From Candidatus Latescibacterota bacterium (GTDB lineage: Bacteria; Krumholzibacteriota; Krumholzibacteriia; WVZY01; JAKEHA01), in NCBI GenBank assembly GCA_963707635.1, contig OY970173.1, positions 2,603,663 through 2,667,662 of the forward strand: a stretch of 64,000 nt of DNA, in the 5' to 3' direction. Of this stretch, positions 3,863 through 47,425 are shown piece by piece (positions within the stretch are counted from its first letter, which is position 1; every line of letters begins with the position of its first letter). A program made the position numbers and the translations under genes. Below the pieces are notes generated by a model, which saw only the letters and a list, made by a program, of their open reading frames with translations, was not told the origin of the DNA and did not search any database.

Positions 3863-4984
3863 TCACTTCAGCACGACCATCTTCCGCGACAACGAACGTT
3901 CGCCGGCGGTGAGCACGCAGAAGTACGTGCCCGACGCGACGCGTTCGCCGTTCTCCCCGGTGCCGTCCCAGGTCGCGAAGTGCCGCCCCTGCGAGAGATC
4001 GCCCTCGACCACCGTCGCCACGCGCGAGCCGCGCACGTCGTGGATGCGCACCACGACGCGCGCCGGCGCGGGGAGGGTGAACGGAATGGTCGTCGAGGGA
4101 TTGAACGGGTTCGGCGAATTCTGCCCGAGCGATAACACGGCCACGGGCGTGCTCACGGTGGCGGGCAACGAGGCTACCTCGTCGCCGCTCTCCTTGACCG
4201 CGGCGATCAGGTAGGTGTACCTCGTTCCCGCCCGGGTCGTGCGATCGACGTACGATGCCGCTTCCACCGGGAGCAAATCGACGAGTCGAATCGGCACCGC
4301 GTCGCCCTCGCCGCGGTAGACGCGCACCCCGCGCACGATTTCGTCCGTCTCGATTCGCCACGACAGCTCCACGCCGTCGTCGCGGACGCGCGCGTCGAAG
4401 GAGCTGATCAGCACCGACACCACCACGATCAGAACCGACCGTTCGCTCGAGTAGGCGCTCATCACGCCCAGGTGGTTGCGGGTGCGAACCGCGAAGTAGT
4501 ATGTGCCGGCCGCGAGCTGGCAGACGTCGTGCGTGCTCGCCGCGCCGGCGTCGACGGTGTACTCGTACTGCGCGGCCTGCCCGCCCGCCACCGAGAACCT
4601 CCCGTAGCTCACCGAATAGCCGACCACGGAGGGGTCGCCGCTCGGGAGCCAGGTCGCGCGCGCGCAACCCGGGGCCGGGCTCGCGAGCGCCGAGAACAAC
4701 GGTGGCGGGGGCGGCTGCAGATTCCCGGCCTCCGCAATCACCAGCACGTCGCCGGTGGTGAGGTCCGCGTCGAATACCGCCGACGCCGCGGAGGACGAAG
4801 CGGCGCTGGCAACCAACGTCCCGTTTCGCTGCACGTCGTACTGTTTCGCGGGTGTCAGGTTGAACAGGCGTACGGTGGTCGGACGGGCCAGCGCGCGCGA
4901 CGGGCCGATTGCGAGCAACGCGACGGTCAAAAGCGCCGCCGCGCGAGCGAATGACTTCGCTCCGTTGCCATCCAAACGATGCAT
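3863..4984 (-). CDS. secreted protein with FN3-like domain and C-terminal T9SS type-A/FlgD-Ig-like sorting domain
   Basis: ATG at comp. 4982-4984 with AAGGAG 8 nt upstream; signal peptide MHRLDGNGAKSFARAAALLTVALLAIGPSRALA; C-terminus ...SPNPFNPSTTIPFTLP...VRIHDVRGSRV...GTYFCVL...RKMVVLK. Confidence 0.75.
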   Translation of the reverse strand: MHRLDGNGAKSFARAAALLTVALLAIGPSRALARPTTVRLFNLTPAKQYDVQRNGTLVASAASSSAASAVFDADLTTGDVLVIAEAGNLQPPPPPLFSALASPAPGCARATWLPSGDPSVVGYSVSYGRFSVAGGQAAQYEYTVDAGAASTHDVCQLAAGTYYFAVRTRNHLGVMSAYSSERSVLIVVVSVLISSFDARVRDDGVELSWRIETDEIVRGVRVYRGEGDAVPIRLVDLLPVEAASYVDRTTRAGTRYTYLIAAVKESGDEVASLPATVSTPVAVLSLGQNSPNPFNPSTTIPFTLPAPARVVVRIHDVRGSRVATVVEGDLSQGRHFATWDGTGENGERVASGTYFCVLTAGERSLSRKMVVLK

Positions 4985-5234
4985 GAGCGTACTCCTTCGG
5001 TCCCGGCGCGCGCGGTCGCCGATGGGCGCGGCCCCGCGCTCGCACCGGAGGACATGCGAGCCATGGCGATGCAGATCGGGTTTTGTGGCGTCCTTATCAG
5101 CAATTTTCGTGTCGCCGGCGCGGGTGGGTTCGCGAGAGTGGCGCAGCGTGGCACAGACGGGCCGTCGAGCGCGAACGGTGGCGCGGGGGGAGCACGGCGC
5201 GCGGCGAACGCATGAGAACGTGTGTGCCGCCGGG

Positions 5235-5263
5235 TTGCGCGCGGGACCAATTGCGGCTATCAT
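5235..5263 (+). promoter_or_regulatory. candidate sigma70 promoter for 5274 gene (near-leaderless)
   Basis: TTGCGC-N17-TATCAT ending 10 nt before ATG 5274. Confidence 0.35.
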
Positions 5264-6919: not shown

Positions 6920-6933
6920 ACCGAGTTACTCAG

Positions 6934-6973
6934 GGCGGGCGCCGAAGGGCGCCCGCCGCCCGCACCGATTTCC
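6934..6973 (+). terminator. GC-rich hairpin, probable terminator after redoxin gene
   Basis: Perfect 10-bp stem GGCGGGCGCC-GAAG-GGCGCCCGCC 15 nt after stop; weak U-tract (GAUUUCC). Confidence 0.4.
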
Positions 6974-6992
6974 CCGGCCGCGGCCCAATGGG

Positions 6993-7022
6993 TTGACACA
7001 ACCCTTTGTAATCCCGTACAGT
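6993..7022 (+). promoter_or_regulatory. candidate sigma70 promoter for the 1571-aa peptidase gene
   Basis: Perfect -35 TTGACA, 18-nt spacer, -10 TACAGT, about 38 nt upstream of ATG 7061. Confidence 0.45.
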
Positions 7023-7060
7023 TACCGCTGCGGGCCGGCTCAGGAACCGGCCCCGATCCG

Positions 7061-10000
7061 ATGCGCAAGACCGTACTGACCCTGCTTCTCGTCTCGATCA
7101 TCGCGGTGCCGCTCTGGATCTCGGGGCACACGGCATCGGTTCGTATCGAGGTCGATGTCCCGACGAGCCCGGGAGACTTTTCCGTCACGGCCGCCGGAAG
7201 GTATACCTCCGTCTCGCCCGTCCCATCCGCCTCCGGATCATTTTTCACCGTTAACGACGTAGGCCGCCCCTCCATCCCGGCGCGCATCGTTTACGTCGCG
7301 TTACCCGACGGCAGGAGTTTCGCCAGCGTCATCGCATCGGCCGAGGGAACCAGCACGCTGGCTCGCGGCGTCGAACTCGCCGTGGCCGCGCCGCCGGCGC
7401 CGGCGCCCGACCTGCCCGCGCCCGGCGTCGCAGTCGCCCAGGATGCACTCGCGCCATACCTCGCGGGCGCGGAATTTCCGTCCGAGCTGGTTCGCTACCT
7501 GGGAAGCGGGACCTGGCACGGCTACACCGTCGCCAGCTTCGCGGTATTTCCGCTGCAAGTGGTGGAAGGCGATCTGGTGCTGCACGCCGACGTCCGGCTC
7601 TCGATCGACACGGAGCCCGCTGCCGGGCCCGGCGCCGAGCGGGCGCTGCGGATGAGCAGCGCGCGCGCGCGCGACATCGAAACGCGGCTGCGCGGTTTGA
7701 TCGCCAACGACGAGGCGCTCGCCACGTATCCTCCCATCCCTCACGACGAACACCGCGGGCCATTCGGCGCGTCGGTTGCGCCCTCGCTCGAAGGCAGCCC
7801 GGTCGACTGCATCATCGTCGCCCCCGCCGCGCTGGCCGCCCCGTTCGACGCGCTGGCGGACTGGAAGACGGCCAAGGGCGTTCCCACCGTCGTCCGCACG
7901 GTCGAGTGGATCGAAGCCAACTACCCTCGCGGGATCGATCGCGCGGAGACCATTCGCTTTTTTCTCCAGGACGCCTACACCAAGTGGGGTGTCCAGTGGG
8001 TGCTCCTGGTGGGTGACACACCCGAGATTCCCCCGCGCTACCTCTACACGGCCTATTACTACGGCGGCACGCTGGTCCCCGCGGACCTCTATTTTGCCTG
8101 CCTCGACGGTTCCTTCAACGCCGACGGTGACACGCGCTTCGGCGAGCAGCCGGCCGACCAGCCCGACCTGTACGCCGAATTGAGCGTGGGACGGCTGCCG
8201 GTGTCAACCCTGGCCGACGCGGCGAATGTGGTCTCGAAGATCATGAGCTACGAGACGCCGCTCGACACCGAGTACGTCGACAAGACGCTGTTCCTGGCGG
8301 AGGTGCTCTTCCCGGCGCCGTGGTCGCCGCCCGCGCCCATCCAACTCAACGGCGGCGACATGGCGGAGTTCGTGCGCATCCGGCACGTGCAGAGCCCCTC
8401 GCGCCGCGTCACCCGGCTCTACGAGACCCCGGCCCTGTTCGCCGGCTCGCTGCCGGAATCGCGCTCCATCGCGATCGATTCGCTCAACGCGGGCTACGAT
8501 TTCGTCTTTCACGTCGGCCACGGTTATCGCTTCAACATGCACTGCGCGGATGAAAACATCGCCATTCCCGACGCGGACGCGCTCTACCACCCGAACCGCT
8601 TCTTCAACCTCTACATGTCGAATTGCACCGCGGCGGCGTTCAATTTCGACTGTCTCGCCGAGCGCATGCTGCGCAATCCCAACGGCGGCGCGGTGTCGGT
8701 AATCGGCGCCGTAAGCAGCTCGTTCGCCGAGATATCGACCGACTACATGGAAGCCTACGCGGGCGCGGTGTTCGACGGCGCGGACCCGGTCCACATTGGG
8801 GACGCATTTGCCGCCTCGCGTGCGTCGCGCACCGCGCTCGCAATGCTCGACGACAATTCCGACCTCTGGACCCACTACGTGTACACGCTCCTGGGCGACC
8901 CCGAGATGACGCTGTGGACCGGCCCCGTGCGCACGCCGGTCGTGAGCCACCCGGCCAGCCTGGTGGCGGGAACCACCGTGGTCGCGGTGGGCGTGGACGT
9001 CGACGGGCTGCCGCAGGCGAACGCGACCGTCTGCCTCTCGAAAGACGGCGAAGACTATCAGGTCGGAACGACCAACGCGGCGGGACAGGCGTCGTTCGTG
9101 CTTTCGACCCGGACCACGGGACAGGTGCGCGTGGTGGTCACCGGTCGCAACCTCGCCCGCCACGAGAGCGCCATCGCGATCGAGTCGGCGGCAAGCGTGC
9201 TGCTCTCGATCGACGAGGTCCTGATCAACGACAATCGCTTCGAGTTTGGAACCTTCGTAATCGGGGACGGAGTCGTGGACGCGGGCGAGGCCGTCGAGTT
9301 GACGCCGACCGTGCGCAACACCGGCGGCGCGGCGTCCGCACCGGCGGTTGCCACCTTGACGACGACGGCCCCGTTCGTAACGATTGCAAACGCTACCGTC
9401 CCGGTGCGTGTGTTGGCCCCGGGCCAGAGCGTGCTCGCCGACGACTCGTGGCGCGTCCAATTCGCGGCCGACGCGCCCGATGGGGCCCTCGCCAGTTTTT
9501 CGGTCACGATCGCGGGGAATGCGACGTGGAGCGACACGTTCTCGGAGACCGTCCACGCCCCGGCGTTCGCGCTCACCTCCCTGCGCACGTCCGACGCGGC
9601 ACCCGTCGGCAACGGCGACGGCGTCATTTCCAGCGGCGAGCAGTTCTTGCTGTTCGTGACGCTCAAGAACCATGGAACCGGAACGGCAGCCGGGCTGGTC
9701 GCGACACTTTCCGCGCTCGACGCCGGAGCCACGGTATTTTCCGGCCTGGCGCAGGTCGGCGACATCGCCGCGCTGGCCGAGCGCGAGTCGGAGTCGGCGT
9801 TCCGTCTCCTCGAGGCCGACGCGACGGTCCAAAACCACCTGCGGCTGATCGTGACGGATACGTACGGGCACTCCCTCACGCACACGATCGAGCTGCGCAA
9901 ACCTGTCGCCCCGGCCATCCAATCGTTCGACGCGAGCCTCGGGGTCGACAAGATGCTCATCCGATGGAATGCAAGTCCCTCGAGCGACGTCGTCGGTTAC

Positions 10001-11776
10001 CGCGTGTACCGTTCGACGTCCGCGACCGGGCCGTTCACGCGCGCGACTCCCGACGTCGTGACGCACACCATGTTCACCGACGCCGGGCTGGCGCCGAACA
10101 CGCGCTACTACTTCGCCGTTACCGCCGTCGACGGGTCGTGGAACGAGAGCGCATTCTCCGCGGTCGGCTCCGCGTCGACCAACCCGCCCCAGCTCGCGGG
10201 CTGGCCGAATTCGCTCGCCGATCCCTCCTCGAATTCACCCGCGATCGGGGACATCGACGGCGACGGCGACCTCGAGGTCGTGATCGGAAACAACCTTCTC
10301 TACGCCTTCGGACACGACGGCGGCGAAGTCCGCGACGGGGACGGCCAGGCGTTGACCTGGGGCGTGTTCTCCGGCCTGGGCAGGGACTTCATCGGTCCGG
10401 CCGCGCTCGCGAAACTGGACGCGCGCACGGGGCTCGATATCGTGGCCGCGGCCGCCACCTCGCGGGAGGTCTACTGTTTCAACGGTGACGGCAGCGTGCT
10501 GCCCGGGTGGCCGCGGCCGACCATCGACGCGGTGCGCGCGGGCGTGGCAGTCGGCGACCTCGACGGCGACGACAGGCCGGAGATCGTCGCGATCGACCAG
10601 GACGCGAATCTGTACGCGTGGCATGCCGACGGATCCGAAGTCCGCGACGGCGACTCGAATCCCGCCACCGACGGCGTTTTCCGCCGTCTGCCGGATACGT
10701 CGCAGATGCAGTACCAGATGCCCGCGCTCGCCGACATCGACCAGGACGGGAAGGACGAAGTGATCATCCCGACCCAGGACAAGAAGCTATACGTGCTGAA
10801 CGAGTTCGCGGCGGACGAGCCGGGTTGGCCGCGCACGCTTCCCAACTACGCGGGCGGCGGAGTCGCGGTGGGCGACATCGACGCCAACGGCGATCTCGAG
10901 ATCGTGGTCACGGTACGGGGTTCCGGAGAGACATACGCGCTGCACCACGACAACACCCAGATGTGGATTCGCTGGCTGCAGCACAACAACTTCTTCAATC
11001 CGTCCCCCGCGCTCGCCGACATCACCGGTGACGGCAAGCTCGAGGTGCTGATCCCGGGCTCCAACGGAAGGCTGTACGCGATCACGCCCACCGGAGCGGA
11101 CGCGCCGGGATGGCCGGTGGTCTATTCGGCGACCACCTACACCGAGTCGTCGCCCATCGTCGCGGACGTGAACGGCGACGGGTCGCCCGACATCCTGCTG
11201 GGCGACGAGGGGGCCTTCATCAACGGCTGGAGATCCAGCGGCGCGCCGCTCGACGGCTTCCCGCTGGTGATGAAGGACTCGGTGCGCGGGACGCCGGCGA
11301 TCACCGACCTGGACGGGGACGGCAGCGTCGAGATCGTCGCGGTCGGGTACGACCGCTCGGTGTACGTGTGGGACATGCCGGGGGCATACAGCGAGGCGAC
11401 GGCGCCGTGGCCGATGTTCCACGCGAACCTCCATCGCAACGGGGTGTATGGCTTCGTCGTGCCGACGGGCGTCGGCGACTCGCCACGGGCGGCCGGGCTG
11501 ACGCTCGAACCGAACTACCCGAATCCCTTCAACCCCACGACGTCGATCGTGTTCGAGATTCCGGATGGTTCGGCGCAGAGAGTTTCGCTGGTCGTTTACG
11601 ACGTGACCGGTGCGCGCGTGCGCACGCTGCACGAGGGAGTGGTGCAACCGGGCCGCCACGTCGTCGCGTGGGACGGGCGCGGCGAATCGGGGGCCGCGGT
11701 GGGTTCCGGCGTCTACTTCTACCGGCTCGCCACCCCGCAGCAAGCGCTCACCCGCAAGATGGTGCTCTTGAAGTAA
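7061..11776 (+). CDS. giant secreted multidomain protein: peptidase C25 (gingipain-like) domain + FG-GAP/VCBS beta-propeller repeats + FN3-like region + C-terminal T9SS type-A/FlgD-Ig sorting domain
   Basis: Signal/TM N-terminus MRKTVLTLLLVSIIAVPLWI; C25-like block DCIIVAPAALAAPFDALADWKTAKGVPT...WVLLVGDTPEIPPRYLY...YFACLDGSFNADGD...LSVGRLPV; at least 7 repeats of x-GDIDGDGDLEVV / VGDLDGDDRPEIV / ADIDQDGKDEVI type (FG-GAP); C-terminus NYPNPFNPTTSIVFEIP...VYDVTGARVRTL...GVYFYRLA...TRKMVLLK. Confidence 0.8.
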   Translation: MRKTVLTLLLVSIIAVPLWISGHTASVRIEVDVPTSPGDFSVTAAGRYTSVSPVPSASGSFFTVNDVGRPSIPARIVYVALPDGRSFASVIASAEGTSTLARGVELAVAAPPAPAPDLPAPGVAVAQDALAPYLAGAEFPSELVRYLGSGTWHGYTVASFAVFPLQVVEGDLVLHADVRLSIDTEPAAGPGAERALRMSSARARDIETRLRGLIANDEALATYPPIPHDEHRGPFGASVAPSLEGSPVDCIIVAPAALAAPFDALADWKTAKGVPTVVRTVEWIEANYPRGIDRAETIRFFLQDAYTKWGVQWVLLVGDTPEIPPRYLYTAYYYGGTLVPADLYFACLDGSFNADGDTRFGEQPADQPDLYAELSVGRLPVSTLADAANVVSKIMSYETPLDTEYVDKTLFLAEVLFPAPWSPPAPIQLNGGDMAEFVRIRHVQSPSRRVTRLYETPALFAGSLPESRSIAIDSLNAGYDFVFHVGHGYRFNMHCADENIAIPDADALYHPNRFFNLYMSNCTAAAFNFDCLAERMLRNPNGGAVSVIGAVSSSFAEISTDYMEAYAGAVFDGADPVHIGDAFAASRASRTALAMLDDNSDLWTHYVYTLLGDPEMTLWTGPVRTPVVSHPASLVAGTTVVAVGVDVDGLPQANATVCLSKDGEDYQVGTTNAAGQASFVLSTRTTGQVRVVVTGRNLARHESAIAIESAASVLLSIDEVLINDNRFEFGTFVIGDGVVDAGEAVELTPTVRNTGGAASAPAVATLTTTAPFVTIANATVPVRVLAPGQSVLADDSWRVQFAADAPDGALASFSVTIAGNATWSDTFSETVHAPAFALTSLRTSDAAPVGNGDGVISSGEQFLLFVTLKNHGTGTAAGLVATLSALDAGATVFSGLAQVGDIAALAERESESAFRLLEADATVQNHLRLIVTDTYGHSLTHTIELRKPVAPAIQSFDASLGVDKMLIRWNASPSSDVVGYRVYRSTSATGPFTRATPDVVTHTMFTDAGLAPNTRYYFAVTAVDGSWNESAFSAVGSASTNPPQLAGWPNSLADPSSNSPAIGDIDGDGDLEVVIGNNLLYAFGHDGGEVRDGDGQALTWGVFSGLGRDFIGPAALAKLDARTGLDIVAAAATSREVYCFNGDGSVLPGWPRPTIDAVRAGVAVGDLDGDDRPEIVAIDQDANLYAWHADGSEVRDGDSNPATDGVFRRLPDTSQMQYQMPALADIDQDGKDEVIIPTQDKKLYVLNEFAADEPGWPRTLPNYAGGGVAVGDIDANGDLEIVVTVRGSGETYALHHDNTQMWIRWLQHNNFFNPSPALADITGDGKLEVLIPGSNGRLYAITPTGADAPGWPVVYSATTYTESSPIVADVNGDGSPDILLGDEGAFINGWRSSGAPLDGFPLVMKDSVRGTPAITDLDGDGSVEIVAVGYDRSVYVWDMPGAYSEATAPWPMFHANLHRNGVYGFVVPTGVGDSPRAAGLTLEPNYPNPFNPTTSIVFEIPDGSAQRVSLVVYDVTGARVRTLHEGVVQPGRHVVAWDGRGESGAAVGSGVYFYRLATPQQALTRKMVLLK

Positions 11777-13241: not shown

Positions 13242-13302
13242 GGGAGATTCCTTCGGGTGACGACGCGCCCGGTCACGTGGACCGGGCGCGTCGCGTGCCG
13301 TA

Positions 13303-20580: not shown

Positions 20581-22920
20581 ATGGATCGCCAGTGGTTCAC
20601 GCGCGGCAACCGATCGAGCGCGCTTCTTTTTGCACTCTCCAGCCTGTTCTTCGGATCGGCGGCGTGGGGCGACAACACCCCGTCCGTCGACCCGGCGGAC
20701 ACGTCCTTCCACGGCAATACCTCACTCGCGTTCGCAGTCCCGCGTCTCCCCCAGTCCATCCAGGTCGACGGGAAGCTGGACGAACCCCTGTGGGCGACGG
20801 CGACCCGGCTCACCAACTTCGTCGAGATCGAGCCCGGCGACAACTGCCGTCCGCCGGTCGAGACCGAGGCGCTGGTCGGCTACGACGACGAGAACCTCTA
20901 CATCGGATTTCGCTGCTACGACGACAACACCGGCGCCATTCGCGCGTCGATTACCGACCGCGACCGCATGTTCGGCGACGACTTCGCGGGGGTCATGATC
21001 GACACTTTCCGCGACCAGACCAACGGCTACGAGTTCTTCGTCAACCCGCGGGGAATCCAGGGGGACCTGTACCGGTCGCGCAACAACGAGGATTCGAGCT
21101 ACGACACGGTGTGGCAGTCGGGCGGGCAGATCACCGACTTGGGGTGGACGGCGGAGATCGCGATTCCGTTCCGGAGCATCCGGTTTCCGGACAGCCCGTC
21201 GCAGAACTGGGGCGTGCACGTGTTTCGCAACCGGCCGCGCGAGAGCCGCGCGCAGTACTCGTGGGCGCCGATTTCGCGCGATGAGAACTGCTTCTTCTGC
21301 CAGGCGGGTGAGATGTCGGGCATCGAGGGGATCGACCAGGGGCGAAACCTGGAGGTGCTTCCCTACGTGATCGGCAACCAGTCCGGGAGCATGAGCGGAG
21401 ACGACGACGCGAGCTTCGACTGGAAAAACGAACACGCCTCCGGCGAGATGGGGATGGGCGTCAAGTACGGCCTCACCCCCAACCACACGCTCGATTTCAC
21501 CTACAACCCCGACTTCAGTCAGATCGAATCGGACGCGACGCAGATCGACGAGAACCAGACCTTCGCGCTCTTCTATCCGGAGAAACGGCCGTTCTTTCTG
21601 GAGGGCGCGGACCGCTTCAGTTCCATGATCGACGTGGTATACACGCGATCGATCAACGATCCCCTTTCCGCCGCCAAGTACACCGGCAAGTCCGGGCGCA
21701 ACACGATTTCGTTCATCACCGCCATGGACGAAACCTCGCCCTACATCGTCCCGTTCGAGGAGCAGAGCGGCGGCGCAGCCGGCCGCGACACCTACTCGAA
21801 CGTGCTGCGCTACAAGCGGGACGTCCTGAAGGAGTCGTTCGTCGGATTGATCGCCACCGATCGCCGCCAGCGCGACGGCAACGGGTCCAACACCACCGCG
21901 GGCGTCGACACGCGTCTGCGCCTGGACGATCATTTCACCGTGTGGGGGCAGGTCCAGGGCAGCCACACCCAGGAGCCGCACGACACCATCATGTCCGAGG
22001 GCTTCAACGACGTCGCCTTCGGCGACCAGGGTCAGTACACGGGGGCTTTCGACGGCGAGAGCTTCGCGGGCTACGCGGCCGAGATGGAGCTCGCCCGGAG
22101 CGGCCGGCACTACAACGCAGACCTGTGGTTCGAGGACTACTCGCCGACGTTTCGCGCCGAGAACGGCTTCGTCACCGCCAATGACTACCGGATGGTCGGC
22201 TTCTGGAATGGCTACCAGTTTCAGCTCGAGAAAAACCCGGTCTTCGAACGCATCGAGCCGCAGCTCGACGCGGGGCGGAAGTACAACTACCAGGGCGAGT
22301 TCAAGGACACCTGGCTCCAGCCGAACATCTGGCTCCGGTTCAAGAAACAGACCTACTTCTGGACCGGTTACCTGTGGAGCGAAGAGAGGTTCGCGGGCGT
22401 GCTGGTGCCCGGGATTCACCGCTGGGTGACCGAGATGGACAGCGAGTTCAGCAAGTACCTCTCGGTCGGATTCGACACCCGCATCGGTCATTCCGTGGTC
22501 CGCGACCGCGACGACCCGCGACTCGGCGACGAGTTCAGCTACGCGCTGTACGCGTACTTCAAGCCGATTTCTCAGGTGCGCTTCGACGTCGACTACAATT
22601 CATTCCGGCTCGACGAGCTCGACGGCAGCGCGAACATCTACGACACCTACGTGGTGCGCACGAAGCTCACCTACCAGTTCTCGAAGAGTCTGTTTCTGCG
22701 CGTGGTGGGCGAATACGTGGACGACCAGCGGTCGCTGGCGGTGGACCCGCTCTTGAGCTACAAGATCAACCCGTTCACGGTGTTTTTCCTGGGGTCGTCG
22801 CATTCCTTCAACGACTTTCAGGACGACCCGTCGACCGCGCCGGTCGAAGTAACCGACCCAGGCTACCGGCAGACCGAGCGGCTCTTCTTCGTGAAGTTCC
22901 AGTATCTGTTCAGGGTATAG
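20581..22920 (+). CDS. DUF5916/CBM9-like domain protein, probable outer-membrane beta-barrel
   Basis: Signal peptide; GGAGG RBS; N-terminal carbohydrate-binding-family-9-like block (VDGKLDEPLW...YIGFRCYD), long beta-rich body ending in aromatic FQYLFRV. Confidence 0.6.
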   Translation: MDRQWFTRGNRSSALLFALSSLFFGSAAWGDNTPSVDPADTSFHGNTSLAFAVPRLPQSIQVDGKLDEPLWATATRLTNFVEIEPGDNCRPPVETEALVGYDDENLYIGFRCYDDNTGAIRASITDRDRMFGDDFAGVMIDTFRDQTNGYEFFVNPRGIQGDLYRSRNNEDSSYDTVWQSGGQITDLGWTAEIAIPFRSIRFPDSPSQNWGVHVFRNRPRESRAQYSWAPISRDENCFFCQAGEMSGIEGIDQGRNLEVLPYVIGNQSGSMSGDDDASFDWKNEHASGEMGMGVKYGLTPNHTLDFTYNPDFSQIESDATQIDENQTFALFYPEKRPFFLEGADRFSSMIDVVYTRSINDPLSAAKYTGKSGRNTISFITAMDETSPYIVPFEEQSGGAAGRDTYSNVLRYKRDVLKESFVGLIATDRRQRDGNGSNTTAGVDTRLRLDDHFTVWGQVQGSHTQEPHDTIMSEGFNDVAFGDQGQYTGAFDGESFAGYAAEMELARSGRHYNADLWFEDYSPTFRAENGFVTANDYRMVGFWNGYQFQLEKNPVFERIEPQLDAGRKYNYQGEFKDTWLQPNIWLRFKKQTYFWTGYLWSEERFAGVLVPGIHRWVTEMDSEFSKYLSVGFDTRIGHSVVRDRDDPRLGDEFSYALYAYFKPISQVRFDVDYNSFRLDELDGSANIYDTYVVRTKLTYQFSKSLFLRVVGEYVDDQRSLAVDPLLSYKINPFTVFFLGSSHSFNDFQDDPSTAPVEVTDPGYRQTERLFFVKFQYLFRV

Positions 22921-22948
22921 TCAGGCACGATCACGGGTGCCACGGGAC

Positions 22949-23036
22949 GGTGTGTGCTCCCTCCGCCGCCGTCCTCCCGCGCACAATGGTTGAAATGCGC
23001 GACTGCGGATTGGCGTCAGAGGGAGCACACACCGCC
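22949..23036. repeat. palindromic intergenic repeat element, family 2 (copy A)
   Basis: 15-bp terminal inverted repeat GGTGTGTGCTCCCTC...GAGGGAGCACACACC; core CGCCGCCGTCCTCCCGCGCACAATGGTTGAAATGCGCGACTGCGGATTGGCGTC nearly identical to reverse complement of 40848-40937. Confidence 0.7.
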
Positions 23037-23043
23037 CAACGAG

Positions 23044-23145
23044 ACTCCGGGCGATATGTCGGGCGGAGTGCGATTTCGCGAGGCGCGCTATAGACCTGGC
23101 GCGCGAAGCGCATGAGCGCGGAGCCCGATATATCGCCCGGACTCC
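23044..23145. repeat. palindromic intergenic repeat element, family 1 (copy A)
   Basis: ACTCCGGGCGATATGTCG...CGATATATCGCCCGGACT termini; about 85% identical to reverse complement of 36572-36666; sits between convergent genes. Confidence 0.7.
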
Positions 23146-23161
23146 CCCATTGTGCAACGCG

Positions 23162-24610
23162 CTACCGCAGGCTGATCCAGACCGATTTCTTTTCCAGGTA
23201 CATGTCGAGGGCGTCGGCGCCGAGTTCGCGGCCGAACCCGCTTTCGCGGTAGCCGCCGAAGGGCGAGGCGGGGTGATAGACGTTGTAGGTGTTCACCCAC
23301 ACCGTCCCGGCTCGAAGCGCCGCCGCGACGCGGTGCGCGCGCGCGGCGTCCTGGGTCCACACCCCGGAGGCCAGACCGTAGCAGCTGTCGTTCGCCATCT
23401 TGACCGCGTCCGCTTCGGTGTCGAACGGAATCACACACAGCACCGGGCCGAAGATCTCATCGCGCGCCACCGTCATCTGGTTGGTCACGCCGGTCAGGAC
23501 GGTCGGCTCGAGGTAGTATCCGCGCCCGCCGACCGCGGCCGCGCGGCCGCCGGCGGCGAGTTTCGCGCCTTCGCGCACCCCGGCCTCGACGCAGGCCAGG
23601 ATTCCATCGCGGTGCGACTTCGACACCTGGGGTCCCAGGCGGGTCTTGTCGTCGAGCGGGTCACCGGGAGTGTAACGCGCCATCTTGGTCTTCACGAGCT
23701 CCACGAACTCGTCGTGGACGGCGCGTTCCACGAACAACCGCGAGCCCGCCGCGCAGACCTCACCCTTGTTGTAGAAGATGCCGCTGCACGCGCCCTGCGC
23801 CGCCGCGTCCAGTTTCGCGTCTGCGAAAACGATGTTCGGGGACTTGCCTCCCAGTTCCAGCGAGACGCGCTTGATCGTTCCGGCCGCGGAACGCATCACG
23901 GTGCGGCCGACCTCCGTCGACCCGGTGAAGGCGACCTTGTCCACGCCGCGCGCGTCGAGCAGCGCCTGGCCGGCGATCGAGCCGCGGCCGGGCACCACGT
24001 TCACCACGCCGGGCGGCACCCCGGCCTCAAGGCACAGCGCCCCGAGCTTGAGAGCCGTCAGCGGCGTGATCTCGGAAGGCTTGATGACCGCGACACACCC
24101 GGCCGCGAGCGCCGGGGCCAGCTTCCACACCGTGAGCAGCAGGGGGAAGTTCCAGGGCACGATCATGCCGACGACGCCGACCGGCTCGCGCAGCGTGTAG
24201 GTGAGGAAACCGGGGATGGTCGGGATGCTCTCGCCGGAAAGCTTGTCGGCCCAGCCCGCGTAGTAGCGCAGCAGGCTGACCACGAAAGGCCCCTCGATCT
24301 TTTCCGACTCGAAGATCGGCTTGCCTTGATTGAGCGTTTCCAGCCGCGCGACTTCCGCGGCGTCGCGCTCGAAGAGGTCGGCGAGCTTCCACAGGATCTT
24401 CGCGCGCGTGCCGCCGTCGAGCTTGCTCCACGCCCCGGAGTCGAAAGCGGCCCGCGCCGAGGCGACGGCGGCTTCGACGTCCTTCACGGTCGCGCAGGCG
24501 ACGTCGCACAGCTTCTCTTCGGTCGCGGGGTTGACGAGCGTGGACACGGCGCGGTCGCTCGCGTCCACCCACTCGCCATTGATCAGCAGCTTGGTGTGCT
24601 TGATGTCCAT
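23162..24610 (-). CDS. NAD(P)-dependent aldehyde dehydrogenase (position and context consistent with BoxD, 3,4-dehydroadipyl-CoA semialdehyde dehydrogenase)
   Basis: ALDH superfamily motifs ELGGKSP, catalytic Cys region GEVCAAGSRLFV, PWNFP; located directly downstream of boxC-boxB. Confidence 0.75.
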   Translation of the reverse strand: MDIKHTKLLINGEWVDASDRAVSTLVNPATEEKLCDVACATVKDVEAAVASARAAFDSGAWSKLDGGTRAKILWKLADLFERDAAEVARLETLNQGKPIFESEKIEGPFVVSLLRYYAGWADKLSGESIPTIPGFLTYTLREPVGVVGMIVPWNFPLLLTVWKLAPALAAGCVAVIKPSEITPLTALKLGALCLEAGVPPGVVNVVPGRGSIAGQALLDARGVDKVAFTGSTEVGRTVMRSAAGTIKRVSLELGGKSPNIVFADAKLDAAAQGACSGIFYNKGEVCAAGSRLFVERAVHDEFVELVKTKMARYTPGDPLDDKTRLGPQVSKSHRDGILACVEAGVREGAKLAAGGRAAAVGGRGYYLEPTVLTGVTNQMTVARDEIFGPVLCVIPFDTEADAVKMANDSCYGLASGVWTQDAARAHRVAAALRAGTVWVNTYNVYHPASPFGGYRESGFGRELGADALDMYLEKKSVWISLR

Positions 24611-26177: not shown

Positions 26178-27827
26178 CTAGATCCTGCTCCAGTCGAACT
26201 CCGGTGAGTGCGGCTTGCCGTACGATGTGAGCGCGCCGCGCTCCCCCACCGCGTTGGGCCGCGTGAATATCCAGTTCTGCCACGCGGAGAGCCGGGCGTA
26301 AATCCGGCTCTCCATCGACTCGGGACCCACGAAACGGAGGTTGGCTTCCATCCCGGTCAGCGCGTCCGGCGAGAGCGAGCGGCGCTCTTCGACCGCCATG
26401 CGGATCCCATCCTCCCAATCGATGTCGTCCAGTGCTTCGGTGACCAGACCCAGCTCCGCGGCCTCTGCGGGAGGGATCGGCTCGCCCCGCCGTTCGAGCG
26501 CGCGCGCCACCGATTGCGGCGAACCGTAAAACCGGTTCTCGAGCCGGGAGAGTCCGTGCGCCATCGGACAGCGCCCCGCGTTGTGCGAGCTGAGCGCGAT
26601 CGCGTTGTCGCTCTCCGCTTCGTCGAGCATGAACGATCGGTCGCACGCCAGCGCGATTTCGAAGAGGCTCCCGGCGAAACACGAACCGGGCACGATTATA
26701 GCGAAGAAGGTGCGGGCCGTCACGTCGATCATCTTGAGGGTTCGCGCCTGCTGCAGCAACACCTCGCGCACGAACCAGTGGTCCGCGCGCCCGGAGAGCG
26801 CTTCGTCCAGGGCGAGCACGTGCTCCCGCTTCCCGACCGTCTCGAAGGTGACCAGCCCGATCTGCGGATGGTTGAAGCGCAGCTCCAGTATCGCGTGGCG
26901 GAGCTCGCGCCACATGCGCAGCGCATACCACGACGCGCCGAGCCCCGCGGGGTCCGCCGGAATGCTCGCGTCGGCCGCCTCCGGGCCGCGGACGGTGATT
27001 TTCGCCGAGCGCTCCGCCGGCCGGATCTCGACGGTCACGAACCGGTAGCGGAGCGAATCACCGTCGGTCTCGGGTTCGACGGACTCGAGCGCCACGCCTT
27101 TGGCGTCGTTACCCTTGCCCGCCAGCTCGACCAGCCGCGAACGCATCGCCTCCGCGTAGACCGACTTCGGGTGCACGAAGTCCACCAGCCCCCATTCCAG
27201 CGCCTTCTTCGCCTTCGCGCCCTCGGCGATGGTGCAGAACGCGTCGGCCCGGTCGCGCCGGACCCGGCGCTTGTCGACCAGACGGGTAAGCCCGCCGGTT
27301 CCGGGCAGCACGCCCAGCAGCGGAACTTCGGGCAGGCTGACCGCGGAGCTGCGGTCGTCGACGAGATGGATCTCGTCGCACGCGAGCGCCAGCTCGTAAC
27401 CGCCGCCCGCCGCGGCGCCGTTCAAGGAGGCCACGTACTTCTGCCGGCTCTTCGCGGTCGCTTCCTCCATGTTGATGCGGGTCTCGTTGGTAAATTTGCA
27501 GAAATTCACTTTGTGGGTGTGCGTCGAGGTCCCGAGCATGAAGATATTCGCGCCGGCGCAGAAGATCTTCTCGTTCATGCTTTCGATGCACACGACCGAG
27601 ACTTCGGGGTGCTCGAAGCGCAGGCGTGTGACCGCGTCGTCGAGCTCGATGTCCACGGCGAGGTCGTACGAGTTCATCTTGAGCTTGTAGCCGGGGCGCA
27701 GCCCCTCGTCTTCCTGGACGTTCATCTTGAGCCACGCGATGGGCCCCTCGACGACGAGTTTCCAGTGCTTGTAGGTGTCGGGATGCGCGGCGAAGCGAAT
27801 CCGTTCCATGCGCGTGTTGGTTTCCAT
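26178..27827 (-). CDS. boxC: 2,3-epoxybenzoyl-CoA dihydrolase (benzoyl-CoA-dihydrodiol lyase), crotonase family
   Basis: HPDTYKHWKLVVEGPIAWLKMNVQEDEGLRPGYKLKMNSYDLAVDIELDDAVTRLRFEHPEV matches BoxC N-terminal region; about 549 aa two-domain enoyl-CoA hydratase-like; start overlaps boxB region (1-nt gap). Confidence 0.75.
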   Translation of the reverse strand: METNTRMERIRFAAHPDTYKHWKLVVEGPIAWLKMNVQEDEGLRPGYKLKMNSYDLAVDIELDDAVTRLRFEHPEVSVVCIESMNEKIFCAGANIFMLGTSTHTHKVNFCKFTNETRINMEEATAKSRQKYVASLNGAAAGGGYELALACDEIHLVDDRSSAVSLPEVPLLGVLPGTGGLTRLVDKRRVRRDRADAFCTIAEGAKAKKALEWGLVDFVHPKSVYAEAMRSRLVELAGKGNDAKGVALESVEPETDGDSLRYRFVTVEIRPAERSAKITVRGPEAADASIPADPAGLGASWYALRMWRELRHAILELRFNHPQIGLVTFETVGKREHVLALDEALSGRADHWFVREVLLQQARTLKMIDVTARTFFAIIVPGSCFAGSLFEIALACDRSFMLDEAESDNAIALSSHNAGRCPMAHGLSRLENRFYGSPQSVARALERRGEPIPPAEAAELGLVTEALDDIDWEDGIRMAVEERRSLSPDALTGMEANLRFVGPESMESRIYARLSAWQNWIFTRPNAVGERGALTSYGKPHSPEFDWSRI

Positions 27828-33707: not shown

Positions 33708-34469
33708 TTACTCCTTCCGGGTCACCGTTCCGTCGTCCGCCACCTCGAAACGCGAGAGCGGCTCCGTGAGCGCCACCGCGTTGGGCCAGGTTTCGACCTC
33801 GCGCACGACCTGCTCTCGCTCCACGGTGCGGATGTGCACCGCGAAACTCACCCGCGGCCGAAATCCGCGCTCGGCCAGCCGCTTTCCGAACGGGTAGGTG
33901 AGAAACCAGAACGGAACCACCCCAACGTCGATTGCGGCGTCGATCACGCCCGCGGATCGCAGCGACTTCTCGGCGATGATGCCGTCTCCCAGGTGCAGCA
34001 CCGTTCGGCCGTCGAGCGTCACCAGTAGCCCCAGGTGCTCGACGTCGCCGTAGTTCACTTTGCCGTGACTCAATCCAAAGCCGTCGACGCGGATACCCCC
34101 CACGTCCACACCGCCGACCACGCCCTCGGTCGCGGGCAGCGTGTGCATCCGCCCCGCGAAGGCGCCGCCGGTGGCCGCGCGCAATGCGGCCGCCGCCTGC
34201 GAGGTCGACACGAACACGGCGCGCGGGTTCGCACCCAGATGCGTCGCCACTGCACCCGCGTCGAAATGGTCCGCGTGGTGGTGCGTCGCCAGAATCGCGT
34301 CGACCGCGTCGAACGGCGGTCGGGCCCGGCGCAGCGCGTCGAGCGCGACCGCATCCGGCATTCCAAACGGCGTCGCCTCGTCCGAGTACAGCCCGTCGAT
34401 CAGGACGCTTCCCGCGCGGGAGCGCACCAGCACGCCTTCGCAGCCGAGGTAGGTGAGCTCCAGCGGCAT
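33708..34469 (-). CDS. MBL-fold metallo-hydrolase
   Basis: HHHADH (HxHxDH) motif and downstream His/Asp ligands. Confidence 0.7.
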   Translation of the reverse strand: MPLELTYLGCEGVLVRSRAGSVLIDGLYSDEATPFGMPDAVALDALRRARPPFDAVDAILATHHHADHFDAGAVATHLGANPRAVFVSTSQAAAALRAATGGAFAGRMHTLPATEGVVGGVDVGGIRVDGFGLSHGKVNYGDVEHLGLLVTLDGRTVLHLGDGIIAEKSLRSAGVIDAAIDVGVVPFWFLTYPFGKRLAERGFRPRVSFAVHIRTVEREQVVREVETWPNAVALTEPLSRFEVADDGTVTRKE

Positions 34470-34589
34470 TGCCGAATCCTAGCACAAACGACCGGGACGG
34501 ATGGGCGTGGCACTGCCCGTCGTAACCCGGGACCGAACCTGATGCTCCGCGCGCCCGATTGGGTTGCACCCCACCTCCTACGGCAGTAA

Positions 34590-36554
<1,965 letters not shown>

Positions 36555-36571
36555 CGTTGCCGCTCGGCCGG

Positions 36572-36666
36572 GCAGTCGATATATCGGACTCCGCGCTCAT
36601 GCGCTCGCGCGCACATGTGGGAATGCGCGACTCGCGAAATCGCGCTTCGCCCGATATATCGACTGC
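36572..36666. repeat. palindromic intergenic repeat element, family 1 (copy B)
   Basis: Perfect 15-bp terminal inverted repeats GCAGTCGATATATCG...CGATATATCGACTGC; internal imperfect palindrome; between convergent thiC and TPR/HEAT gene. Confidence 0.7.
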
Positions 36667-36685
36667 CTACGATGGGGGTCCTATA

Positions 36686-40752: not shown

Positions 40753-40847
40753 CCCGGGCCGGGAAAGGCGCCGAAGTTCTCGGCCGGCCAGCGGTTTGAC
40801 AGGGAGGCACCCGTCGGCTAGTCTCCGCGACAACCTGCGCGCCCTGT

Positions 40848-40937
40848 TGGCGGGATGCACTCCCTCAAGACGCCAATCCGCAGTCGCGCATATCAACGTG
40901 CGCGCGGGAGGACGGCGGCGGAGGGAGTGCATCCCGC
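40848..40937. repeat. palindromic intergenic repeat element, family 2 (copy B, inverted relative to copy A)
   Basis: Perfect 18-bp inverted repeat GGCGGGATGCACTCCCTC...GAGGGAGTGCATCCCGCC flanking a core that is the reverse complement of the 22949-23036 core. Confidence 0.7.
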
Positions 40938-41007
40938 CTCAGACGACACCTAACCAGTTTGCATACAACGAGTTTCCCCGTACTCCTCATCCAAAGCGAG
41001 ACTGTCC

Positions 41008-44558: not shown

Positions 44559-44588
44559 TTGACTTGAGATTTGTGATGCGGGTACAAT
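44559..44588 (+). promoter_or_regulatory. strong candidate sigma70 promoter for first LVIVD gene
   Basis: TTGACT-N18-TACAAT in a locally AT-richer stretch; GGAG RBS before ATG 44649. Confidence 0.5.
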
Positions 44589-44648
44589 CGGTGTACTTGC
44601 CGGCATGGTCCAGCCCCGCCCCGGGCCCCGACTCCAGGAGAACGTCTG

Positions 44649-46007
44649 ATGGCTTCGCGCATCGTCCCCTATCTGGCTCTCGCCGTTGCCCTGCTGACCG
44701 GCGCCACCCAGGCCGCGGCCGCAACGGGAGACATCACGCTCGTAGGCCACCTTAGCCTGCCCACGGCCGTCCGCATTACCAACGTCTGGGGCTACTACGA
44801 CTACGACACCGGCAAGGAGTACGCGCTGGTCGGTGACTGGTATACCGGGGTCTATGTCATCGACGTCAGCATTCCCGCCAACCCTATCGAAGTCACGAAG
44901 GTGCTCGGGGTACCCGGCTTCGATCTGAAGCCCTTCGGCCACTACCTGTACACCTGCAACGGCAACAACATCGGAAACACCTCGCGGATCATTGACTTGT
45001 CGAACCCGGCCTTCCCGGTGGTGCTGCCGAACACGTTTCATTCGTGCCACACCATATCGATTTCCACGCGCGGGGTGATGTACACGAACTATGTCGGGGT
45101 GCGCATCTATGATCTCGTCAACGATCCCACGCACCCGGACTCGCTCTTCTATATCCAGACCAACGCGGGGCACGATACCACGCCGCGCGGCGACCGCCTG
45201 TACGACTTCGCTGGCGCCATGATGAACATTTGGAACGTGTCCGACCCGTCGGCGCCAACGCTGATCGGGTCGGACGACAACCCCCTGGTCCAGTACTACC
45301 ATGGCGGGGACGAGTCGAAGGACCACGACTATCTCTACATGTGCGACGAATTCGCGGTGTCGCCGACGCCCGACATCGTGGTCTACGACATCTCGGACCC
45401 TTCGATTCCCACCCGGATCGGAAGCATCAACGACACGAGCTCGCGCGTTCACCAACTCTACGTGGTCGGCGACCTGATGTTCGTCGGGTACTATACGGCG
45501 GGGTTCAAGGTGTTCGACATCTCCAACCCGGGCAATCCCGTCCTGGCGGACGAGTTCGACACGTCGCCGTATCAGACCGAAACCAGCCCCGACGTCTACA
45601 GCGGCGCCTACAACGCGTACCCGTTTGCGCCGTCGGGAATCGTGTATGTGGCCGATCACCCGACCGGGCTCTATCTGTTTTCCGTCGAAGGCCACACCGG
45701 CCAGGTGACGGCGGCCCGGGAATCGCCGTCGACGGCGACGCTGTCCCAGAACTTCCCCAACCCGTTCAATCCCTCGACGACGATCGCATTCGAGCTCGTG
45801 CGCCGGGAGCACGTGATGCTGCGCGTCTACGACGTCCGCGGCGGCCTGGTACAGACGCTGGTCGACGAGACGCTCGCCGCAGGAGCGCACACCGCGCCGT
45901 GGTCCGGCCTCGATGCGTCCGGGCAGGCAGTTGCGTCTGGCGTCTACTACTACCAGCTCAACGCGGGACCCACCTCGCTGACCCGGCGCATGGTGCTCCT
46001 CAAGTAG
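44649..46007 (+). CDS. LVIVD-repeat beta-propeller protein (choice-of-anchor-B-like) with C-terminal T9SS type-A/FlgD-Ig sorting domain
   Basis: Signal peptide MASRIVPYLALAVALLTGATQAAA; LVIVD-like repeats (YVIDVS, IYDLV, VVYDIS, KVFDIS); C-terminus NFPNPFNPSTTIAFEL...VYDVRGG...GVYYYQL...TRRMVLLK. Confidence 0.75.
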   Translation: MASRIVPYLALAVALLTGATQAAAATGDITLVGHLSLPTAVRITNVWGYYDYDTGKEYALVGDWYTGVYVIDVSIPANPIEVTKVLGVPGFDLKPFGHYLYTCNGNNIGNTSRIIDLSNPAFPVVLPNTFHSCHTISISTRGVMYTNYVGVRIYDLVNDPTHPDSLFYIQTNAGHDTTPRGDRLYDFAGAMMNIWNVSDPSAPTLIGSDDNPLVQYYHGGDESKDHDYLYMCDEFAVSPTPDIVVYDISDPSIPTRIGSINDTSSRVHQLYVVGDLMFVGYYTAGFKVFDISNPGNPVLADEFDTSPYQTETSPDVYSGAYNAYPFAPSGIVYVADHPTGLYLFSVEGHTGQVTAARESPSTATLSQNFPNPFNPSTTIAFELVRREHVMLRVYDVRGGLVQTLVDETLAAGAHTAPWSGLDASGQAVASGVYYYQLNAGPTSLTRRMVLLK

Positions 46008-46049
46008 ACACGAAGGCCCGATGCGCGCGTGACCGCCGGGCGGACGGGG

Positions 46050-46078
46050 TTGCCCGATCGGCCCGGTTCGCGTAGAGT
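46050..46078 (+). promoter_or_regulatory. candidate sigma70 promoter for second LVIVD gene (near-leaderless)
   Basis: TTGCCC-N17-TAGAGT ending 9 nt before ATG 46088. Confidence 0.35.
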
Positions 46079-46087
46079 CGTGGCTAG

Positions 46088-47425
46088 ATGCCGAAAAAAG
46101 CCGCCGGATCCATCCCATTGATCGCCGCCTGCTGGCTCGCCGCGCTGGCGGGGACGCCGCGCGCCAGCGTGGACATCACCCTCGTCGGCCGCATGCACCT
46201 GCCGAACAGCCTTTTTGTGACCAACGTCGTCGGCTACGTAGATTCCGGGACGATGCGCGAGTACGCGATCCTGGGAGACGACCACGACCGGGTTTACATC
46301 GTGGACGTCACCGACCCGACCGCCCCACGGCTGGCGTCGCAGGTCTCCGGGGTGCCGGGGTTCGACGTCAAGACCTGGGATCACTACCTGTACACGTGCG
46401 ACGGCAACACCAGCGGCTTCGACAGCCGCATCGTCGACCTCGCCGACCCGGCAAATCCGCAGATTCTCCCCGACGGCTTTGCGTCGGCGCACACGCTGCA
46501 GGTCGCCGCGAACGGGATCCTCTTCGCCGAGTACCCGGGGCTTCGCCTCTACGACCTCGCGGCCCCCACGGCGCCGGTGCTTCTCTACCAAACCGGCGGG
46601 GAAGGCCACGACTCGACCCCGCGCGGCACGCGGCTGTACGACTTTCACGGCCGCGACGGAACCGTGATCTGGGATGTCAGCAACCCCTCGAACCCGGATA
46701 CGCTCGGGGTCGTCGACGACCCGGCGATTGTTTTCCACCACAGCGGTGACGTCACCCCCGACGAGCGCTTTCTCTATATCTGCGACGAGCTCATGACCGG
46801 CCCGGGCGCCGACATCTCGATCTGGGACATCGTGAGCGCGGCGGCGCCGGTTCGCGTGGGACAGATCGCGGACGCGAACTCCAGCGTGCACAACATCTAC
46901 ATCGTGGGCACCCTCGCCTACGTCGCCTACTACGCCGCCGGTTTCCGCGTGTACGACCTGACGGATCCCGTGCACCCGGTGCTCGCCGGCGCCTACGACA
47001 CCTCGAAGCGCTCCGGCGAGGGCTTCATCGGCGCCATCGGCGCCTACGCGTATTCGCCGAGCGGTAACATCTTCGTGTGCGACATCGAGAACGGGCTTTT
47101 CATTTTCTCGGTGACGCCCACCACCGCTTCGCCGGCCACGGGAGACGCGGGCTTCGTGCTCGAACAGAACGCGCCCAACCCGTTCAACCCGTCGACGCGG
47201 ATTCCGTTCGAGCTCACCAGCGGCGGGCGCGTCACGCTCGACGTCTACGACGTCCAGGGGCGCCGCGTGCGCCAGGTGCTGGACCGCGTTCTCCCGGCGG
47301 GCGCGCACGAAGCGGAATGGGACGGGCGCGACGACGCCGGCACGTCGGTGGCCTCCGGCGTCTACTTCTACCGCATGGCCTCGCTCACGCGGGTCGAGAC
47401 ACGACGCATGGTGTTGCTGAAGTAA
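46088..47425 (+). CDS. LVIVD-repeat beta-propeller protein, tandem paralog, with T9SS type-A/FlgD-Ig sorting domain
   Basis: About 45% identical to 44649..46007 over full length; C-terminus NAPNPFNPSTRIPFEL...VYDVQGRRV...GVYFYRM...TRRMVLLK. Confidence 0.75.
   Translation: MPKKAAGSIPLIAACWLAALAGTPRASVDITLVGRMHLPNSLFVTNVVGYVDSGTMREYAILGDDHDRVYIVDVTDPTAPRLASQVSGVPGFDVKTWDHYLYTCDGNTSGFDSRIVDLADPANPQILPDGFASAHTLQVAANGILFAEYPGLRLYDLAAPTAPVLLYQTGGEGHDSTPRGTRLYDFHGRDGTVIWDVSNPSNPDTLGVVDDPAIVFHHSGDVTPDERFLYICDELMTGPGADISIWDIVSAAAPVRVGQIADANSSVHNIYIVGTLAYVAYYAAGFRVYDLTDPVHPVLAGAYDTSKRSGEGFIGAIGAYAYSPSGNIFVCDIENGLFIFSVTPTTASPATGDAGFVLEQNAPNPFNPSTRIPFELTSGGRVTLDVYDVQGRRVRQVLDRVLPAGAHEAEWDGRDDAGTSVASGVYFYRMASLTRVETRRMVLLK

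Follow-up and report, generated by a model that had tools for sequence, protein, structure and literature searches.

The intergenic gap between the convergent genes for a DUF5916/CBM9 protein and an aldehyde dehydrogenase (ALDH), located in a stretch of 64 kb that was analysed in full (hereafter the window), is filled by two adjoining long imperfect palindromes, which represent two repeat families and were designated copy A of family 2 and copy A of family 1 (Table 1). The named homologues of the DUF5916 protein, and of the ThiC protein encoded elsewhere in the window, belong to Candidatus Krumholzibacteria or Krumholzibacteriota, with identities of about 70–85%.

Table 1. Positions of the genes, repeat units and other features discussed in the text (window coordinates unless a contig of a relative is named)
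Feature	Position	Strand	Remarks
Secreted large protein	3863-5263
Secreted large protein	6920-11776
Inverted repeat, unrelated	13261-13293		intergenic
DUF5916/CBM9 protein gene	20581-22920	+	stop codon 24 nt 5' of the array
Compound locus	22945-23146		both units
Family-2 unit, copy A	22945-23037	+	inverted repeat, fold z-scores -6.4 and -10.1, HMM match, alignment
Family-2 central hairpin module	22978-23004	+	CGCGCAC-loop-ATGCGCGACT; consensus comparison, cross-family HMM
Family-2/family-1 junction	23038-23042	.	0-10 nt, variable across doublets
Family-1 unit, copy A	23043-23146 (end 23144/6)	+	inverted repeat, fold, alignment
Family-1 central hairpin module	23082-23106	-	inverted with respect to the family-2 module
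Aldehyde dehydrogenase gene	23162-24610	-	stop codon 15 nt past the array
Inverted repeat, unrelated	26991-27065		intergenic
ThiC gene	34659-36554
Family-1 copy B, solo unit	36571-36667	-	between convergent ThiC and HEAT-repeat genes
Promoter-like motif	40796-40824		TTGACA-N17-TAGTCT
Family-2 copy B, solo unit	40849-40938	-	upstream of M14 peptidase gene (start codon 41008)
Secreted large protein	44577-47425
Core-less family-1 hairpin	61818-61854	.	37 nt, GGCAGGCGACATGTCGGA g TCCGATATGTCGCCTGCC; 3 nt past M16 peptidase stop codon
Third-family copies	L112:7343-7517; L082:5933-6082; L113:13925-14062; L085:1915-2063		contigs of relatives
Additional right-arm copy	L114:12415-12455		CCGACATGTCGTGCCGGCC

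Anatomy of the compound locus

The inverted-repeat search revealed 26-nt arms in the family-2 unit (88% complementary, spacing 41 nt) and 46-nt arms in the family-1 unit (72% complementary, spacing 10 nt). The outer stem of the former consists of GG(A)CGGTGTGTGCTCCCTC / GAGGGAGCACACACCGCC and encloses an asymmetric, conserved core, and that of the latter includes CGATATGTCG / CGATATATCG. An initial annotation, made from the letters of this DNA alone, had placed two palindromes at 22949-23036 and 23044-23145; both are present, with limits that agree within 4 nt. The folding that it had proposed as a check came out in favour of the two units, with z-scores from -5.3 to -10.1 over both strands and none of 200 dinucleotide shuffles folding as well on either strand. 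Two short open reading frames (22921-23157 and 22931-23113), taken there for artefacts of the repeats, do exist and lie wholly within them. Since a close relative carries no unit at this site and the junction between the units varies from 0 to 10 nt with no conserved frame, these reading frames are indeed considered artefacts.

Scanning of positions 22700-23400 for terminators gave no site, and no promoter consensus was found within the compound locus. Rfam 15 gave no match in the whole window at gathering thresholds; below them appeared plant microRNA hairpin models, all far sub-threshold.

Further copies in the window and in related genomes

BLAST and profile searches located one further copy of each family in the window; with one hairpin that has family-1 arms and no core, the total comes to 2+2+1 copies. 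Pairwise alignments of these copies showed long invariant cores and outer stems that differ from copy to copy yet remain self-complementary. The family-2 termini described in the initial annotation, GGTGTGTGCTCCCTC and GGCGGGATGCACTCCCTC, are each self-complementary, the 18-nt arms of GGCGGGATGCACTCCCTC being 100% complementary. Copy B of family 2 is inserted between a promoter-like motif and the start codon of the gene for the M14 peptidase; the motif lies about 24 nt upstream of the unit. As this motif is kept in position in two distant relatives, L115 (TTGACA-N17-GTATTC) and L116, the copy probably lies within the 5' UTR of the gene.

A scan of metagenomes with a 20-mer of the family-1 core matched 36 loci, 19 of them genuine (the contigs or loci of relatives carry the numbers L082-L116); the other 17 were chance matches inside unrelated coding sequence. 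Comparison of the flanks resolved about 19 distinct genomic sites, and the non-redundant collection comprised 21 family-1 and 15 family-2 units. The repeat assignment of the initial annotation hinged on further copies of this kind, which exist both in the window and at the sites on related metagenome contigs. Cores of 55–60 nt are 85–97% identical across unrelated sites, and the genes beside the arrays are housekeeping genes with no relation to one another (NusA, EPSP synthase, GcpE, NUDIX, sigma-54 activators, MsrA). Among 185,579 species-representative genomes no true copy of the family-2 core 18-mer CGCGACTGCGGATTGGCG was found, the 75 matching loci being due to chance, with similarity that stops at the ends of the 18-mer; the families are therefore narrowly distributed. 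Viral contigs gave 0 matches to either core pattern.

The arrays typically start 3–24 nt past a stop codon and in many cases take up the space between two convergent genes, with a minority placed in 5' regions; the orientation of the units with respect to the adjacent transcription units is mixed. This placement would suit strong bidirectional terminators, or stabilisers of RNA 3' ends, that arose in place between convergent genes, and the orthologous site that is empty in one close relative (L113) does hold a small GC-rich hairpin at the same position. Such an origin is nevertheless very unlikely. No T/U tract follows the stems of any copy, which together with the empty terminator scan also led to the rejection of an intrinsic terminator, and cores of such identity at unrelated sites cannot arise independently. 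Moreover, copies are found in 5' regions as well, including the probable 5' UTR mentioned above, and the corresponding sites in outgroups are empty.

Two short-read contigs of relatives end inside, or at most 10 nt from, an array. One of them, the Logan ERR12036786 contig (6448 nt), has its start some 100 nt ahead of the M14 gene; the other, JGI 3300043331 (5601 nt), stops 10 nt past the stop codon of DUF5916. Short-read assemblies of the lineage thus seem to break at the repeats, which is of practical concern, as are the spurious reading frame calls that they spawn.

A recurrent doublet with an inverted module

Family 2 lies directly 5' of family 1 in 14 of the 21 family-1 units, in the order and orientation seen in the window. 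The compound locus is one instance of a recurrent doublet, family 2 then family 1, and the side-by-side placement is no coincidence. The junctions measure 0–10 nt and are variable in sequence. A closer comparison of the two consensus sequences showed a central module of 41 nt common to family 2 and the reverse complement of family 1 (32/41 positions identical), with a score reached by none of 2000 shuffles, and a cross-family HMM match was obtained (E=0.005). On account of this inverted homology, the doublet can be described as one REP-sized hairpin module present twice, in opposite orientations and each time embedded in a long stem specific to the family. The initial annotation had pointed instead to a core motif shared by both families, AATGCGCGACT, which is present in family-2 copy A and family-1 copy B and absent from family-1 copy A; its three matches at ≤1 mismatch, against 1.9 expected, do not go beyond chance. 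Judged by the consensus alignment, the real family resemblance is the inverted 41-nt module, whose length that 11-mer understates.

In the minimum-energy fold each 41-nt module pairs inside its own unit of 90–100 nt and not with the module of the partner. The fold predicted for the window doublet as single-stranded DNA is that of two adjacent hairpins, the family-1 hairpin being clover-like.

Many arrays are mosaics that extend beyond the doublet, with fragments at their ends. In 6 of 13 doublets family 2 is preceded by an inverted right end of family 1, and the left end of family 2 is found inverted downstream of family 1 in L095, L096 and L111. As a result, L095 and L096 hold four-part composites, partial inverted fragments included, for which long-range pairing of the family-2 pieces is a predicted alternative fold. 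In L089 a family-1 unit is nested inside arms of family-2 type.

A third palindromic intergenic repeat family (about 150–165 nt), unrelated to the other two and with no copy in the window, occurs in the relatives (Table 1). Its members adjoin family-1 units in L112 and L085, and in L085 the copy has apparently taken the place of most of a family-2 unit. In L114 an additional copy of the right arm lies just past the family-1 unit orthologous to that of the compound locus, as a partial arm duplication.

Gain, loss and flipping at orthologous sites

A comparison of occupied with empty sites in relatives, another check that had been proposed in the initial annotation, revealed both states. In L113 (89% protein identity) no unit occupies the compound site, and its 98 nt hold nothing beyond the small GC hairpin. 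In L112 (92%) it holds a family-1 unit in the opposite orientation and a different palindrome of about 165 nt, and in L114 (72%) a diverged family-1 unit in the same orientation. The core variant GAGGCGCGCTATAGAC of family-1 copy A is specific to the DUF5916/ALDH site and also occurs in these L112 and L114 orthologues. In L096 the site of family-1 copy B is occupied by a four-part array, and that of family-2 copy B by a unit with an identical outer stem and a flipped core. Neither copy-B site is occupied in L115 and L116, two more distant relatives in whose 44 kb no copy of family 1, 2 or 3 is present; the two window copies are therefore derived insertions.

Five of the seven orthologous comparisons are flipped, with identities of 0.86–0.97 to the reverse complement and 0.62–0.70 on the same strand. 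In one of the five the whole doublet is turned, and such whole-doublet flips take 8 nt of flank along. The units at orthologous sites are more alike than their own flanks.

The core-less hairpin of the window is the sole hairpin of family-1 arms without a core within 303 kb. At its orthologous site, L095 and L111 carry full family-1 units and pieces of family 2. The junction shows a CCG microhomology and the loop retains a core-derived ACT, so that the hairpin is most likely a family-1 unit from which a core of 58 nt was deleted between CCG microhomologies. It could also be read the other way round, as one of the short pre-existing hairpins into whose loops independently mobile cores insert in either direction, with no inversion needed. 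The existence of this hairpin, the change of orientation between unchanged arms and the greater similarity of units than of flanks would all agree with this. We consider it quite improbable, given that a single core-less hairpin was met in 303 kb, that the core is present in 2 of the 3 orthologues of its site and that the ACT in the loop favours deletion; whole doublets, with 8 nt of flank, flip too, and the outgroup sites are wholly empty, with no bare hairpins.

Between the window and L114 the family-1 units of the DUF5916/ALDH site have 79% identity, and both carry the site-specific core variant. Over the same distance the four-fold degenerate sites of both flanking genes are saturated (identity 0.47–0.49, against 0.43 by chance). 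Persistence past saturation would imply either constraint or a repeated renewal or homogenisation of the copies. A purely selfish repeat in decay would account for it less well than constraint at the host level or repeated replacement.

Covariation of the outer stems

Covariation was scored on RNAalifold consensus structures of the 21 family-1 and 15 family-2 units, with 500 shuffles and slid alignments as controls. The paired cells amount to 96.7% in both families. Double-sided changes were found at 7 pairs in family 1 (22 cells, 7.2 in shuffles) and at 6 pairs in family 2 (13 cells, 4.3 in shuffles); none of the 500 shuffles reached the covariation score, and pairing dropped to 19–56% in the slid controls. 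The palindromic structure is hence conserved between copies, a point on which the initial annotation would have failed otherwise, with stem complementarity that persists through changes on both sides. These changes are confined to the outer stems; the inner helices are invariant and therefore mute on their own structure. In both families the outermost 5–8 bp are the most variable columns and the centre is nearly invariant. The family-2 arms are largely dimorphic (GA/TC or TG/CA), with few hybrids. Two G-U pairs are fixed on one strand, 22/84 of family 1 (16 of 21 units) and 28/68 of family 2 (15 of 15), and in the doublet both fall, as G-T pairs, on one and the same strand. The strand bias of G-U over A-C is otherwise weak (about 23 against 11 cells in family 1, 8 against 7 in family 2) and is no guide to the choice between RNA and DNA.

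In the initial annotation the compensatory change in the termini was taken as a sign of selection on hairpin formation. The complementarity of the stems stands, and it does not by itself prove selection on an RNA hairpin. Since the units occur and flip in both orientations with respect to transcription, homogenisation of the arms at the DNA level would be an equally good or better cause.

The same data bear on a structured RNA family, of cis-acting elements in 3' or 5' UTRs or of small RNAs, which would be repeated because of its function and not by mobility. Significant covariation of the outer stems, near-invariant cores with G-U pairs fixed on one strand, very stable folds and an orthologous family-1 copy conserved past synonymous saturation are what selection on RNA structure would leave. 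Against this, the units lie in both orientations to transcription and flip at orthologous sites, their presence differs among close relatives while the neighbouring genes are unchanged, and those neighbours share no functional theme. Truncated and nested mosaic fragments are common, the inner helices do not covary and Rfam has no match. Taken together, a structured RNA family appears an improbable explanation.

Comparison with known systems

No transposase, RAYT (Y1_Tnp), integrase or invertase/recombinase gene was found among the approximately 49 genes of the window, nor any mobilising gene among 20 array-flanking genes in relatives, all of them housekeeping. The 303 kb examined showed no full-length insertion sequence related to the units, no direct repeats that would represent target-site duplications were detected in the 70-nt flanks of any of 23 arrays, and the consensus sequences of both families are free of GTAG and CTAC.

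These results weigh on the label of REP/MITE-like elements given in the initial annotation, of which the REP-like part can be retained. Classical MITEs, internally deleted derivatives of insertion sequences with DDE transposases that are moved through their terminal inverted repeats, would likewise be short, non-coding, repeated and palindromic, with presence/absence polymorphism. In the present units, however, variation is greatest in the outermost stem, which would have to serve as terminal inverted repeat, and the centre is conserved; together with the lack of target-site duplications at any copy and of a full-length relative in 303 kb, this makes a MITE origin highly improbable.

Several other identities were rejected. 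The attC sites of integrons are imperfect palindromes bounded by R''/R' core sites (RYYYAAC ... GTTRRRY) and lie in arrays of same-direction cassettes near intI; here GTTRRRY is found at neither end, housekeeping genes in convergent orientation flank the units and no integrase is encoded in the window. The absence of spacer-repeat periodicity and, again, the convergent housekeeping neighbours speak against a CRISPR array, the lack of an adjacent reverse transcriptase against a retron, and the anatomy of the units and the same neighbours against a riboswitch. As for invertons, the likeness resides in a short segment bounded by inverted repeats that is found in both orientations among close genomes. 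Unlike them, the flipped segment measures only about 55 nt and occurs at many loci, with no internal promoter motif, no invertase gene nearby and no recombinase gene in the window, and the flips were seen between genomes.

REPs are extragenic imperfect palindromes that recur many times within one genome; a REP unit measures about 20–40 nt, and two inverted REPs pair into one REPIN hairpin. The gene of the RAYT, a Y1 HUH transposase, is single-copy and flanked by its cognate REPs; a conserved tetranucleotide of GTAG type, at the base of the hairpin, is said, after Ton-Hoang and Messing in 2012, to be its recognition and cleavage site. In Pseudomonas fluorescens SBW25, REPINs are hairpin-forming REP doublets mobilised by RAYT transposases (PMC3116915, PMC3337134). 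The present repeats resemble them in being extragenic, repeated and hairpin-forming over about 90–100 nt with two inverted REP-sized modules, in keeping complementarity despite variation in sequence, in the coexistence of several families per genome and in the formation of higher-order clusters. A mostly vertical persistence and the possibility of a clover-like fold as single-stranded DNA are also common to both, as is excision of the centre to give a palindromic singlet. The core deletion at the window hairpin would be the analogue of the 'symmetric excision' of REPINs, in which loss of the centre leaves long palindromic singlets (PMC3337134). The differences are equally clear. In the predicted fold each module lies inside its own long stem and the two do not pair together; the centre is conserved and the ends vary, whereas REPINs have conserved ends and a variable spacer; and the halves of the doublet come from different families. 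The units are three times the length of classical REPs, they lack a GTAG-like motif, and no RAYT was found in the window or in the array flanks. The host, too, belongs to a candidate phylum of the FCB group and not to the Proteobacteria.

The BIMEs of Enterobacteria, which Gilson, Bachellier and colleagues are said to have described as mosaic clusters of palindromic unit types in alternating orientation, share further traits. They contain conserved linker motifs and are bound by IHF, gyrase or Pol I. Like them, the present arrays are mosaic clusters of at least two unit types whose key modules alternate in orientation, and they are found after genes and between convergent genes, with variable numbers of partial units. 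Unlike BIMEs, the units are much longer and have no conserved linker, the junctions being of 0–10 nt and variable. With ERIC/IRU and Correia/NEMIS elements (imperfect palindromes of 100–150 nt) they have in common the size, the intergenic position and the presence/absence polymorphism between strains. Repeats of those types are often co-transcribed, and in Correia elements the terminal inverted repeats are conserved and a TA duplication is present. Two-family doublets set the present repeats apart from ERIC, and we know of no description of frequent core flipping for ERIC or Correia elements.

Proposed origin and significance

From these comparisons, the repeats are new families of the known REP/REPIN/BIME type and not a new kind of system. 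The locus is best explained, with a probability that we put at roughly 0.6, as a composite non-autonomous mobile REP/REPIN/BIME-like palindrome doublet of an uncultured member of Candidatus Krumholzibacteriota. The approximately 19 independent sites, the recurrence of the doublet, the inverted module common to both families, the covariation, the predicted fold, the turnover, derived insertions and flipping and the placement were counted for a mobile repeat, and so were the core-less hairpin, the mosaics, the nested unit and the contigs that break at arrays. Counted against a REP-like assignment were the lack of a transposase or RAYT in the window or beside the arrays, the missing GTAG, the length of the units, the conserved centre, the persistence past saturation and the narrow distribution.

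The mechanism that we propose starts from a doublet of two related units of about 90–100 nt, family 2 then family 1, each with a nearly invariant asymmetric core that contains the hairpin module of about 41 nt and is closed by an outer stem of 18–20 bp. The units would fold in single-stranded DNA as hairpins or clover-like structures and be copied or moved by a trans-acting enzyme encoded elsewhere in the genome, the most obvious candidate being an HUH transposase of the RAYT/IS200-like kind. The strand that this enzyme recognises may be marked by the invariant bulges and by the fixed G-T pairs (22/84 and 28/68). Landing would take place mainly in the few bases past stop codons. Once inserted, the near-perfect arms of 18–20 bp would give rise to frequent inversion of the core or of the doublet, to partial inverted duplications and to core deletions. 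Recombination or template switching during replication would homogenise the arms, maintaining complementarity while the sequence drifts, and in this way 'compensatory' changes could arise with no selection at the RNA level. If the host draws any use from the units, for example through an RNA hairpin at the 3' end by which convergent transcripts are stabilised or insulated, that use would have been co-opted secondarily.

A variant of this scheme, which we regard as unlikely, is that the doublet is a host-retained module able to work in either orientation: the asymmetric hairpin of about 41 nt, enclosed by long stems, would be recognised by a protein, retained at particular gene ends past synonymous saturation, actively inverted and served by an enzyme other than a classical RAYT, as a REPIN-like symbiosis that evolved independently in a candidate phylum. 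If so, core flipping would be part of the biology of such a module.

For a mobile palindrome doublet of REP/REPIN/BIME type, the notable features are the recurrent combination of two families, flips that are unusually frequent between orthologous sites and a persistence past neutral expectation. To our knowledge, repeats of this type have been studied almost solely in Proteobacteria; two related families and a third are documented here in Candidatus Krumholzibacteriota, a phylum known from metagenomes alone. The orthologous series, with empty, solo, doublet, four-part mosaic, core-deleted and flipped states, may serve the study of how palindromes are inserted, inverted and trimmed. Should the persistence reflect constraint by the host, the units would be candidates for co-opted RNA 3'-end signals or signals of DNA architecture in a little-explored phylum.

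Other features of the window

ThiC genes are commonly preceded by a TPP riboswitch; at positions 34000-34660, upstream of the ThiC gene of the window, none was found at Rfam gathering thresholds. Two unrelated intergenic inverted repeats (13261-13293 and 26991-27065) may be ordinary terminator-like hairpins, one of them having perfect arms of 14 nt (CGACGCGCCCGGTC/GACCGGGCGCGTCG) and the other arms of 17 nt with a spacing of 41 nt. The large secreted proteins listed in Table 1 carry C-terminal domains of FlgD_ig or Por_Secre_tail type and include a C25 peptidase and LVIVD-repeat proteins. From their domain content, they are consistent with the cargo repertoire of type IX secretion in a bacterium of the FCB group.
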